52,031 bases of DNA. Origin: Pseudomonadota bacterium (GTDB lineage: Bacteria; Pseudomonadota; Alphaproteobacteria; Kiloniellales; J153). Of the stretch, positions 12,616-14,739 are shown in pieces. A program made the position numbers and the translations under genes. The notes beneath the pieces are model-generated. The model saw only the letters and a program-made list of their open reading frames with translations. It ran no database searches and was not told the origin of the DNA. Where the stretch lies: positions 1 through 52,031 of the forward strand of contig JACZVL010000003.1 of the NCBI GenBank assembly GCA_022572685.1, given 5' to 3'. The stretch's first letter is position 1. Every line of letters starts with the position of its first letter.

Positions 12616-14739
12616 ATGACGGAAGGTTCCGCAACGACCTCGATCGACGGGCCGTCGGGCCCGCGCCTCATGGTGATCGGGCTCGGCGGCGCTGGCGGCA
12701 ACGCGGTCGACAACATGATTCGCGCCAAGCTCGACGGCGTCGATTTTCTGGTCGCCAACACCGACGCCCAGGCGCTGGAACAGTCGCAATGCGAGCACCG
12801 GGTGCAGCTCGGCCGGGGCGTGACCCGGGGCCTGGGGGCGGGGTCCCGGCCCGACGTCGGGCGCGCCGCGACGGAGGAGGCGCTCGACGAGGTGCTCGGC
12901 GCCCTCGAGGGCGCGCATATGCTGTTCATCACCGCCGGCATGGGCGGCGGCACCGGCACCGGCGGCTCTCCGGTGATCGCCCAGGCCGCGCGCGAGGCCG
13001 GAATCCTGACCGTCGGCGTGGTGACCAAGCCGTTCCACTTCGAGGGCATCCGGCGCATGCGCCTGGCCGAGGCCGGCATCATCGAGCTCGGCAAGCAGGT
13101 CGACACCCTGATCGTGATCCCGAACCAGAACCTGTTCCGGGTGGTCGACGAGAAGACCACCTTCGCCGATGCCTTCCGGATCGCGGACGAGGTGCTGCAC
13201 TCGGGCGTGCGCGGGGTCACCGACCTGATGGTCATGCCCGGCCTCATCAATCTGGACTTCGCCGACATCCAAACGGTCATGGCCGAGATGGGCAAGGCGA
13301 TCATGGGCACCGGCGAGGCCGAAGGCGCCAACCGCGCGCTCGAGGCGGCCGAGGCGGCGATCTCCAATCCGCTGCTCGACGACGTCTCGATGAAGGGCGC
13401 GCGCGGGGTCTTGGTCAACATTTCCGGCGGCATGGACCTGACGCTGTTCGAGGTCGATCAGGCGGCCAATCGGATCCGCGAGGAGGTCGATAGCGAGGCC
13501 AATATCATCTTCGGTTCGGTCTTCGACCCGCGCCTAGAGGGGCGCATGCGGGTCTCCGTGGTCGCGACCGGGATCGAGGCGGAGGCGCAGGAGGCGCAGC
13601 CCCGCTCGGTAGCGCTCAGCCTGATCGTCAGCCGCAGCCGAGACGAGGCGGCGGCCGAGGAGCCGGCGGCGGCGGTGGCGCCGGACCGCGAATCCGCGGC
13701 GGCGCCATCTCCGGAACCGAAGGCCGAGGCGAAGCTCGAGCCGGCACCGGAACCGGAACCGGCGCCATTTTCGAGAGTCGATTCCACCGCGGACAAGGCC
13801 GACGGCGCGGCGGCGGCGTCCGGTGGCGCGACATCTCCCGAAAAGGGGCGCGAAACCGGGATGGAACCCGCGGCCCAGGGCGGCGGCACGGCCTTTAAGG
13901 AGATTCGCGACGACGACGCGGAAGGGCCGCACACCGCGACGCCGCCGGCGGGGGACGGTACCGTGGTCGACATCGCGACCCCCACCATGCCCCAGGCCAA
14001 ATCGAAGCGGTTGTTCGGGCCCACCCCGAATCCCGCCCCGAAACCCGCCCCGAAACCCGCGCCGACGAACGCCACACCGGCCGCAGCCACACCGGCTGAA
14101 GCCGCGCCACCTCCGAATCTGGCGCCGGCTACCGCGCCCGATACGGAGTCCGATACGGAGTCCGGCACGGAGGTCGGCGCCGGGTCGGAGCCCGAACCCG
14201 AACCCAAGAAGCGGCGCGCCGGCGGGCTGTTTTCCTGGATTGCCGGGCGAGGCGGCGCCGGCGCGGAGGAGAACTTCGAAAAGGGCGATCGCCATTACTA
14301 CGGCCAGGGCGTGCGCAAGAACCTGACCTTGGCCCTGCGCGCCTACCGCAAGGCCGCGGAACAGGGGCACGCGCCGGCGCAGAACCGGCTCGGCTGGATG
14401 TACGAAAAGGGCGAGGGCACCGAGGCGGACTACGCCGAAGCGGTGACCTGGTACCAACGGGCCGCCGAGCAGGGCCACATCAACGCCATGAACGACCTCG
14501 GCTACATGCACCGCCAAGGTTGGGGCGTGCCGCAGAGCTATTCGGAGGCCTTGCGCTGGTTCCGCGACGCGGCCGAGAAATACGACAGCTACGCCGAGTA
14601 CAACATGGGCCAGATGTACGAGAACGGCTGGGGCGTGGAGAAAGACCTGGACGAGGCCATCCGGTGGTTCCGCCGCTCGGCCGCGCGCGGCCACGAATGG
14701 GCCGCCAAGCGACTCGAGGAGATGGGTGTCCGAACCTGA
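12616..14739 (+). CDS. ftsZ: FtsZ GTPase domain + Pro/Ala/Glu-rich linker + C-terminal SEL1 repeats (FtsZ paralog)
   Basis: [32 protein letters not shown]7 loop [10 protein letters not shown]-terminal SEL1 repeats; RBS GGGAG before 12616 (alternative start 12580). Confidence 0.9.
14263..14720 (+). repeat. About four SEL1-like (TPR-family) protein repeats
   Basis: A.N.LG.MY..G.G...D..EA..W...AAEQG pattern repeated at about 36-aa spacing. Confidence 0.9.

Follow-up and report, generated by a model that had tools for sequence, protein, structure and literature searches.

An FtsZ paralog of the Kiloniellales with a Sel1-repeat module in the place of the C-terminal peptide

The C-terminal peptide of FtsZ is a hub for the tethering and the regulation of the division ring, and the FtsZ paralogs that have been described either keep this peptide or lose it. 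What, then, would be the role of an FtsZ in which a folded domain stands where the peptide should be? The question is raised by a gene at positions 12616..14739 (forward strand) of a stretch of 52,031 nucleotides, contig JACZVL010000003.1 of the assembly GCA_022572685.1 (hereafter the window), from a Pseudomonadota bacterium of the order Kiloniellales. Its product, here named FtsZ-Sel1, joins an FtsZ core to a series of Sel1-like repeats; in this lineage a folded and strongly conserved protein-binding domain has been substituted for the peptide, while the linker with its flexibility is still there and the genome still has a canonical FtsZ.

The gene is one open frame of 707 codons plus a stop codon. 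An alternative in-frame ATG at 12580 would lengthen the protein by 12 residues; the start at 12616 is favoured because most homologues begin with MTEGSA… or MTD…. The FtsZ core (residues 17-321; 12664..13578, forward strand like the parts that follow) is composed of the GTPase domain and the FtsZ_C subdomain, recognized by Pfam as Tubulin at residues 18-177 (158.5 bits, cut-off 33) and FtsZ_C at residues 226-321 (131.3 bits, cut-off 27), and the protein scores 391.2 bits with the NCBIfam FtsZ equivalog TIGR00065, whose cut-off is 295.2. In the translation the tubulin signature GGGTGTG lies within residues 108-117 and the T7 loop NLDFAD at residues 212-217. We aligned 30 of 51 fusion proteins, fragments and near-duplicates having been dropped: GGGTG (G110-G114), the residues N212, L213, D214, F215 and D217, and the loop G24-N29 are invariant, and T115 and G116 of the signature are conserved in at least 90% of the proteins. 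The initial annotation, made from the letters of the window alone, had called signature and T7 loop intact, which is what we find, with the exception of the signature of one orthologue (genome G013) that is discussed below.

The core is followed by a disordered linker (residues 322-528; 13579..14199), modelled by AlphaFold2 with a predicted local distance difference test (pLDDT) below 50; its 207 residues, among which A (47), P (35), E (22) and T (17) are the commonest, agree with the low-complexity linker of more than 200 residues noticed earlier. A conserved basic and aromatic motif comes next (residues about 529-548; 14200..14259), with the consensus KRRSGGFFSW(I/M)xGGGG in the 30 fusions; according to the AlphaFold2 models it would be neither folded nor docked on the repeats. 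The remainder of the protein (residues 549-707; 14260..14736) is a Sel1-like repeat solenoid, in which Pfam PF08238 recognizes four stretches (128.8 bits, gathering score 30.7) and for which AlphaFold2 predicts, at pLDDT 97-98 over residues 550-702, nine helices forming four repeats and a capping helix, so that the earlier count of about four repeats up to the stop codon is right. Foldseek matches the module to solved crystal structures of Sel1-like repeat proteins with probability 1.00, a template modelling (TM) score of 0.76-0.80 (query-normalised) and a root-mean-square deviation of 1.3-2.2 Å, and phmmer matches it to Sel1-like repeat proteins of solved structure at E values from 7e-94 to 1.9e-28. 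These sequence and fold searches of solved structures returned generic Sel1-like repeat proteins only and no ligand-bound relative; the NCBIfam matches to this part bear the names MotX, ExoR and AlgK. As had been noted, the translation does not end in a DIPxFLR-type peptide. No transmembrane or hydrophobic segment is found in FtsZ-Sel1 (the best 19-residue Kyte-Doolittle mean is 1.19) and, the N-terminus being that of the FtsZ core, neither is an export signal; in the absence of such segments the Sel1 module is expected to be cytoplasmic.

An architecture of this kind could be produced by a misassembly, a missed stop or a frameshift that merges an ftsZ fragment with an adjacent Sel1 gene. The source bin is in fact fragmented (274 contigs, 81% complete) and the DNA of the linker is low-complexity and G+C-rich; however, the distribution of the gene leaves virtually no room for this explanation. 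Of 13 further genomes of its family (coded f1), 12 carry the fusion, whole or in fragments: nine genomes have a full-length orthologue in a single frame (59-80% identity), G012 has it as a single 760-aa frame, and in G003 and G004 fragments are cut off at contig ends; in G002 (82% complete) only generic Sel1 matches, and no fusion orthologue, were found. The fusion is therefore far from being absent in related genomes, an outcome that would have spoken against it. Sequence data from outside the bin agree: half or more of the 31-mers of ftsZ-Sel1 are held by 18 marine-sediment runs from several studies, and contigs of four of these runs, from four studies, tile the frame and span both junctions, that between core and linker (for example 13424-13929 and 13555-14060) as well as that between linker and Sel1 (14031-14900 and 14062-14509). 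Inside the frame the five indel variants listed in the sediment runs (+6, +3, −12, +6 and −6 bases) are all multiples of three and thus preserve it. Moreover, in a collection of 5.8 billion proteins, 120 best-scoring clusters were listed, drawn from ENA, JGI, NCBI and Logan, and Tubulin, FtsZ_C and Sel1 occur together in 50 of them. Misassembly or a missed stop as the source of the fusion is excluded.

Over the whole order (127 species genomes), full-length matches at E <= 1e-170 are found in family f1 (at least 9 of 13 genomes) and, within family f7, in one genome, G071; the copy there is divergent (54% identity, so that full-length orthologues in relatives range from 54 to 80%) and lies in a different gene neighbourhood; the other eight families gave no full-length fusion match at this threshold. 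These order-wide counts are a floor because that search used a stricter first look. The source names of the database clusters are few, being metagenome-assembled genomes (MAGs) of Kiloniellales, Kiloniellaceae, Alphaproteobacteria or Proteobacteria, and a scan of genome contigs with the Sel1 part returned two true orthologues among 80 loci, in MAGs of Kiloniellales and Kiloniellaceae, the others being generic Sel1. In the databases the fusions are named 'cell division protein FtsZ', apart from one partial entry named 'hypothetical protein'. Literature searches combining FtsZ or the divisome with Sel1, or aimed at the domain architecture, returned no published description, in line with the statement of the initial annotation that none was known, and the words Sel1, TPR, Kiloniell and fusion do not occur in the main text of a 2026 survey of alphaproteobacterial FtsZ duplicates (PMC13732431). 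As far as these searches reach, the fusion proteins are already in public databases as FtsZ, and their architecture is undescribed and unstudied.

Is FtsZ-Sel1 the only FtsZ of the cell, or a second one? A Tubulin-family search of its own assembly (81% complete, 274 contigs) returned the FtsZ-Sel1 gene only. At bases 2-304 of another contig, C232 of the same genome (G000), we found the code for the C-terminal 101 residues of a canonical FtsZ that ends in DEDLLDIPAFLRRQAN (…DIPAFLRRQAN), with lpxC following directly; the remainder of this gene fell into an assembly gap. Canonical-length FtsZ proteins ending in (D/E)IPAFLRRQAN are present in ten relatives that have the fusion or fragments of it (G001, G004-G010, G012 and G013); among the copies listed for relatives none was seen for G011 and G003. 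All 17 aligned canonical tails end in IPAFLRRQAN, and ftsA is directly upstream of canonical ftsZ in the five relatives checked (5/5). FtsZ-Sel1 is thus a true paralog beside canonical FtsZ, as the initial annotation had proposed, a canonical ftsZ being indeed located elsewhere in the genome.

The two copies have remained close to each other in the core, with 76.5-88% identity within the same genome (8/8 genomes). When 37 fusion cores are compared with 23 canonical cores, requiring a consensus of at least 85% on both sides, only four of about 305 positions differ systematically (V19/T, R146/H, I229/M and Q282/E, fusion first). Among the 30 fusions the mean pairwise identity is 79% in the core, 23% in the linker and 77.5% in the Sel1 module, and over eight orthologue pairs the ratio of nonsynonymous to synonymous substitutions (dN/dS) ranges over 0.04-0.15 in the core and 0.05-0.18 in Sel1, against 0.29-0.65 in the linker, whose alignment is unreliable. 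The similar ratios indicate that the Sel1 module is under purifying selection as strong as that of the GTPase core; judged from these sequences, such a constraint fits a conserved binding partner.

The point at which the paralog departs from the canonical protein can be located in the linker. In the order, canonical FtsZ linkers carry a series of conserved short motifs, several of them hydrophobic, namely PRPxxLSLVS, NRLFAYSQ, DAFIAPxP, ADPFAAAA, RKKAQRLFAKMTGGAARAL and QPRLSGLD, followed by the terminal peptide (tail alignment rows L044:2-304, L022-L031, L013-L019 and L038); the basic-then-LF motif RKKAQRLFAKMTGGAARAL is found about 80-95 aa before the canonical C-terminus in several families. 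FtsZ-Sel1 retains the linker start, PR(S/A)VPLSL(I/V)VSR in the fusions, which is common to canonical FtsZ, and a version of the basic-then-LF motif (KKRRSGGFFSWIxGGGG), and Sel1 comes immediately after it, which places the exchange right after this motif. The initial description of the C-terminal peptide as replaced by Sel1 repeats is therefore right in that the module stands in the place of the peptide; the exchange is not a simple replacement, since the long linker and one linker motif have been retained. The retention of one of them by a paralog draws attention to the short conserved motifs that the 'disordered' linker contains in alphaproteobacterial FtsZ.

Taken together, the sequence evidence leads us to favour, with moderate confidence, a polymerising paralog that co-assembles with canonical FtsZ in the Z ring and docks a partner through its Sel1 module. 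What the sequences show is the architecture, its conservation under purifying selection and the presence of a canonical copy; polymerisation, co-assembly, midcell localisation and a partner are inferred, and the scaffold or Z-ring co-polymer recruiting a new partner that the initial annotation had proposed is supported in part. Canonical ftsZ would have been duplicated in a Kiloniellales lineage; of its parts the duplicate would have retained the GTPase core, the disordered linker at much of its length and one motif within this linker, and everything after that motif, including the binding peptide for FtsA and other tethers, would have been exchanged for a cytoplasmic four-repeat Sel1 solenoid. 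FtsZ-Sel1 would polymerise and enter canonical FtsZ filaments and thus the Z ring at midcell: co-assembly is most likely because the cores are nearly unchanged within the same cell, and the filament interfaces are presumably compatible because so few core positions differ systematically. As its terminal peptide is missing, FtsZ-Sel1 should be unable to use the FtsA tether itself, and membrane tethering of a mixed ring would come from the canonical subunits by their own peptide. The paralog would hold out a folded Sel1 receptor on a flexible tether of about 200 residues, docking another protein or peptide at the division site, and the polarity of the interaction would be reversed: normal FtsZ offers a peptide that is gripped by partner domains, whereas FtsZ-Sel1 would offer a domain that grips its partner. 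If FtsZ-Sel1 does join the Z ring, it constitutes a natural experiment in rewiring ring recruitment, and its Sel1 domain would be a handle for a new partner associated with the divisome, in an uncultured group of marine sediments that has been little studied.

The near-canonical core, which permits mixing into the ring, and the lack of the C-terminal peptide would also suit a modulator of division, which would co-assemble and dilute membrane tethering or slow septal wall synthesis, the Sel1 module serving to control the paralog itself by way of sequestration, turnover or timing. The truncated FtsZ1 of Agrobacterium is reported to inhibit division when it is expressed continuously, and a hyperactive ftsW to protect partly against this block (PMC13732431). 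The known inhibitory paralogs in that report are truncated, however, and a pure 'poison subunit' needs neither a long linker nor a constrained 160-aa domain, both of which have been kept here; we consider such a modulator plausible and rather unlikely.

Several observations weigh against a partner-docking subunit of the Z ring. (i) In the orthologue of G013 (L011, G013:C10; protein P0045) the signature reads GMGGGTGS--APV, two tubulin-signature residues being missing; unless this is a sequencing error, the GTP-binding loop is truly relaxed here, and GTP binding may in places be under less constraint. (ii) Evolution is 1.86 times faster in the paralog cores than in the canonical ones (28/28 genome pairs). 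(iii) The neighbourhood of the gene offers no partner candidate, the only conserved neighbours being mazG (divergent) and a metallo-beta-lactamase (MBL)-fold hydrolase with tatD (convergent). (iv) The bacterial Sel1-repeat proteins that have been characterised or solved are mostly periplasmic or secreted, so that a cytoplasmic role has little precedent. (v) Two runs labelled metatranscriptomic contain the gene; they are stored as contigs, their library type is ambiguous, possibly DNA, and they do not count as a sign of transcription. (vi) The core tree, described below, is too poorly resolved to date the fusion or to tell one origin from several.

The faster evolution of the core, together with the position of the gene outside the division and cell wall (dcw) cluster and a promoter-like site of its own, would also agree with a separate cytoskeletal system, in which FtsZ-Sel1 forms its own filaments off the Z ring and the Sel1 module anchors them to a pole, an organelle or an envelope complex. 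A role outside division has a parallel in magnetosome FtsZm, a second FtsZ of the truncated-paralog type, and other bacterial tubulins are reported to be tied to membranes by adaptors of the tetratricopeptide repeat (TPR) type, as in Bklc with BtubA/B. Nevertheless, with only four lineage-specific positions the core gives no sign of a remodelled polymer interface, and no co-conserved neighbours suggest another structure; we hold this explanation to be improbable, below the modulator, and leave what little probability remains to something else.

Returning to an FtsZ-Sel1 that co-assembles in the ring, what could its module bind? The Sel1 solenoid might be a receptor for a short linear motif of divisome proteins, possibly one of the conserved tail motifs of canonical FtsZ itself, which would give a mixed ring with two orthogonal docking chemistries; we put this forward as a tentative and somewhat doubtful idea. 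A complex prediction between the Sel1 region (residues 525-707) and the last 40 of the 101 residues of canonical FtsZ scored 0.01 against a mark of 0.32, without controls, and is evidence neither way. If the module is such a receptor, canonical subunits would provide a peptide and the paralog a peptide receptor, leading to self-cross-linking or to a new recruitment branch.

Comparison with known systems helps to delimit what is new. FtsZ-Sel1 resembles canonical alphaproteobacterial FtsZ in its core, in a long disordered linker starting with PRxxxLSLVS and in the basic-then-LF motif, but it has neither the C-terminal peptide nor the preceding QPRLSGLD, has a Sel1 solenoid, and is encoded outside the ftsA-ftsZ-lpxC arrangement. 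The truncated paralogs of Rhizobiaceae and Phyllobacteriaceae (A. tumefaciens FtsZ1, S. meliloti FtsZ2) are likewise second copies outside dcw, with a near-canonical GTPase core and no C-terminal peptide; according to the 2026 survey, which took one representative per genus, such duplicates stop where the GTPase domain does or have a minimal linker behind it (PMC13732431), whereas FtsZ-Sel1 continues with a 207-aa linker and a 159-aa Sel1 module. The survey also reports full four-domain duplicates, with the C-terminal domain, in Bradyrhizobium and Limibacillus, so it was too broad to describe the known second copies of Alphaproteobacteria as simply truncated, as had been done earlier. The Agrobacterium paralogs, FtsZ1 included, are reported to localise at midcell and to form co-polymers with the essential FtsZ (10.1101/412759).

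The closest functional analogy found in print is Bklc of Prosthecobacter: also there a TPR-type solenoid is coupled to a polymer of the bacterial tubulin family, with a proposed link to membranes, but Bklc is a separate protein of the same operon, the polymer is tubulin and not FtsZ, and the repeats are TPR and not Sel1. The Sel1 module has the fold and repeat consensus of bacterial Sel1-like repeat (SLR) proteins such as the Oxalobacter SLR proteins, E. coli C5321/EsiB, Legionella LpnE/LceB and Helicobacter HcpC; in the searches made these are stand-alone, whereas the module of FtsZ-Sel1 ends a cytoskeletal GTPase without a signal peptide or membrane segment. The only relevant literature found that links Sel1-like repeats and the divisome concerns RgsF of S. 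meliloti, described as a separate Sel1-like repeat protein of a growth-zone complex.

Where the fusion came from can be answered in part. In trees of the cores, the main fusion set is placed, with weak support, among the canonical sequences of its own family, the main clades having Shimodaira-Hasegawa-like approximate likelihood-ratio test (SH-aLRT) values of 87-92 and many forks being open; the trees include L017 from G022, an unpublished genome, on which no claim rests. In approximately unbiased (AU) tests a single clade is not rejected, whether it is made up of the main fusion set (p 0.478), of this set together with P0052 and P0130, the divergent proteins of G071 type (p 0.384), or of every fusion, P0163 among them (p 0.334). 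Most simply, these sequences would be read as the result of a duplication that the resident ftsZ underwent within family f1 or close to it. No donor of the Sel1 module was identified, since the stand-alone Sel1 proteins of relatives (best at 43-50% identity) are no closer than those of unrelated phyla (42-53%).

Among 1.84 billion representatives at 50% identity, FtsZ and Sel1 are combined in five of the best 150, namely P0039, P0050, P0130, P0137 (a fragment) and P0163. The last one (cluster members P0271-P0274) has two detectable Sel1 repeats and a tail ending in …RQLEAALERVRHWQPDDEQA; its Sel1 tail is 42% identical to that of the window over 97 aa, no closer than any Sel1 protein, and in the core it is placed with another canonical representative (SH-aLRT 92). 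P0163 is possibly an independent fusion in another lineage, and its dissimilar Sel1 tail is a hint that FtsZ and Sel1 may have been joined more than once; should the solenoid be a receptor of the kind outlined above, this would mean that the solution evolved more than once.

Upstream of ftsZ-Sel1, across an intergenic region of 159 bp, lies the divergent mazG (11625..12456, reverse strand; Pfam MazG, the start at 12456 being read from the sequence), which is found upstream of the fusion gene in all nine relatives' loci that hold upstream DNA. A weak promoter-like element occupies 12516..12557 (forward strand) of this region: a consensus scan gives one site, TTGGCG-18-TATCAT at 12516-12545, against a mean of 0.4 in shuffled sequences, and an element resembling TTGCRC…N17…(C)TTTAG(G/T)CT, which overlaps this site, is seen again ahead of the orthologous genes of nine relatives (by eye, which is weak evidence). 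No full CtrA box was found upstream. GANTC sites, recognized by the CcrM methyltransferase, occur in the upstream regions of some orthologues and not in the 260 bp upstream of ftsZ-Sel1 in the window; for example, in L009, L010, L011 and L030 (genus g6) a GAATC lies between the -35-like and -10-like elements. Positions 11000-17500 gave no Rfam match, and another lower-G+C stretch (about 0.50) is observed at 11150-11600, between a 3-hydroxyisobutyrate-dehydrogenase-like gene (10288-11157) and the end of mazG.

Downstream in the window follow a LuxR-type response regulator, the MBL-fold hydrolase, tatD, metG and holB; with these flanks and mazG, no ftsQ, ftsA or lpxC adjoins the gene, as had been noted, the gene does not hold a dcw-cluster position, and it appears to be monocistronic. 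In relatives the MBL-fold hydrolase gene, convergent to the fusion gene, comes next and tatD after it; the window alone has an insertion of about 1.5 kb between fusion gene and hydrolase. This stretch (14750-16310) has a G+C content of 0.50-0.57 against about 0.70 and then the LuxR-type response regulator (15673-16305, forward strand); its low-G+C part has no Pfam or Rfam match. Both are missing at the same place in L004, L006, L008 and L011, where the hydrolase comes directly after the fusion gene. A 318-aa forward-strand open reading frame (ORF) at 16309-17265, which gave the best tblastn match here, was rejected, as it reads like the shadow of the reverse-strand hydrolase gene at 16339-17130 (HAHADH motif); by tblastn it looks better 'conserved' than the longest reverse-strand ORF, 16235-17263, a trap for ORF callers in G+C-rich DNA.

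Other unusual FtsZ proteins were met in the course of these searches. In G003 (L039, on contig C106) there is a short FtsZ of about 356 aa with almost no linker, whose tail right after the core ends in …EIELPGFLQRFRKRRD, a peptide-like motif. Other second copies in the order are L032 (G024:C3), L033 (G015:C7), L034 (G014:C21) and L035 (G030:C303): two of them have acidic tails of about 350 aa with no terminal peptide and a common DLVEDVTxWIT motif, and two, of about 790 aa, have the variant peptide NIPSFLRRTED and a very long core branch (1.09); L032, L033 and L034, the three scanned, have no extra Pfam domain. P0059 has a precomputed match to PAS_5 (PF07310), its FtsZ core starting from about residue 257, which is maybe an effect of the gene call or of a contig end. 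Finally, P0134 (840 aa) is a tandem FtsZ-FtsZ protein, and P0216 (815 aa) joins FtsZ to a DUF900 alpha/beta hydrolase.

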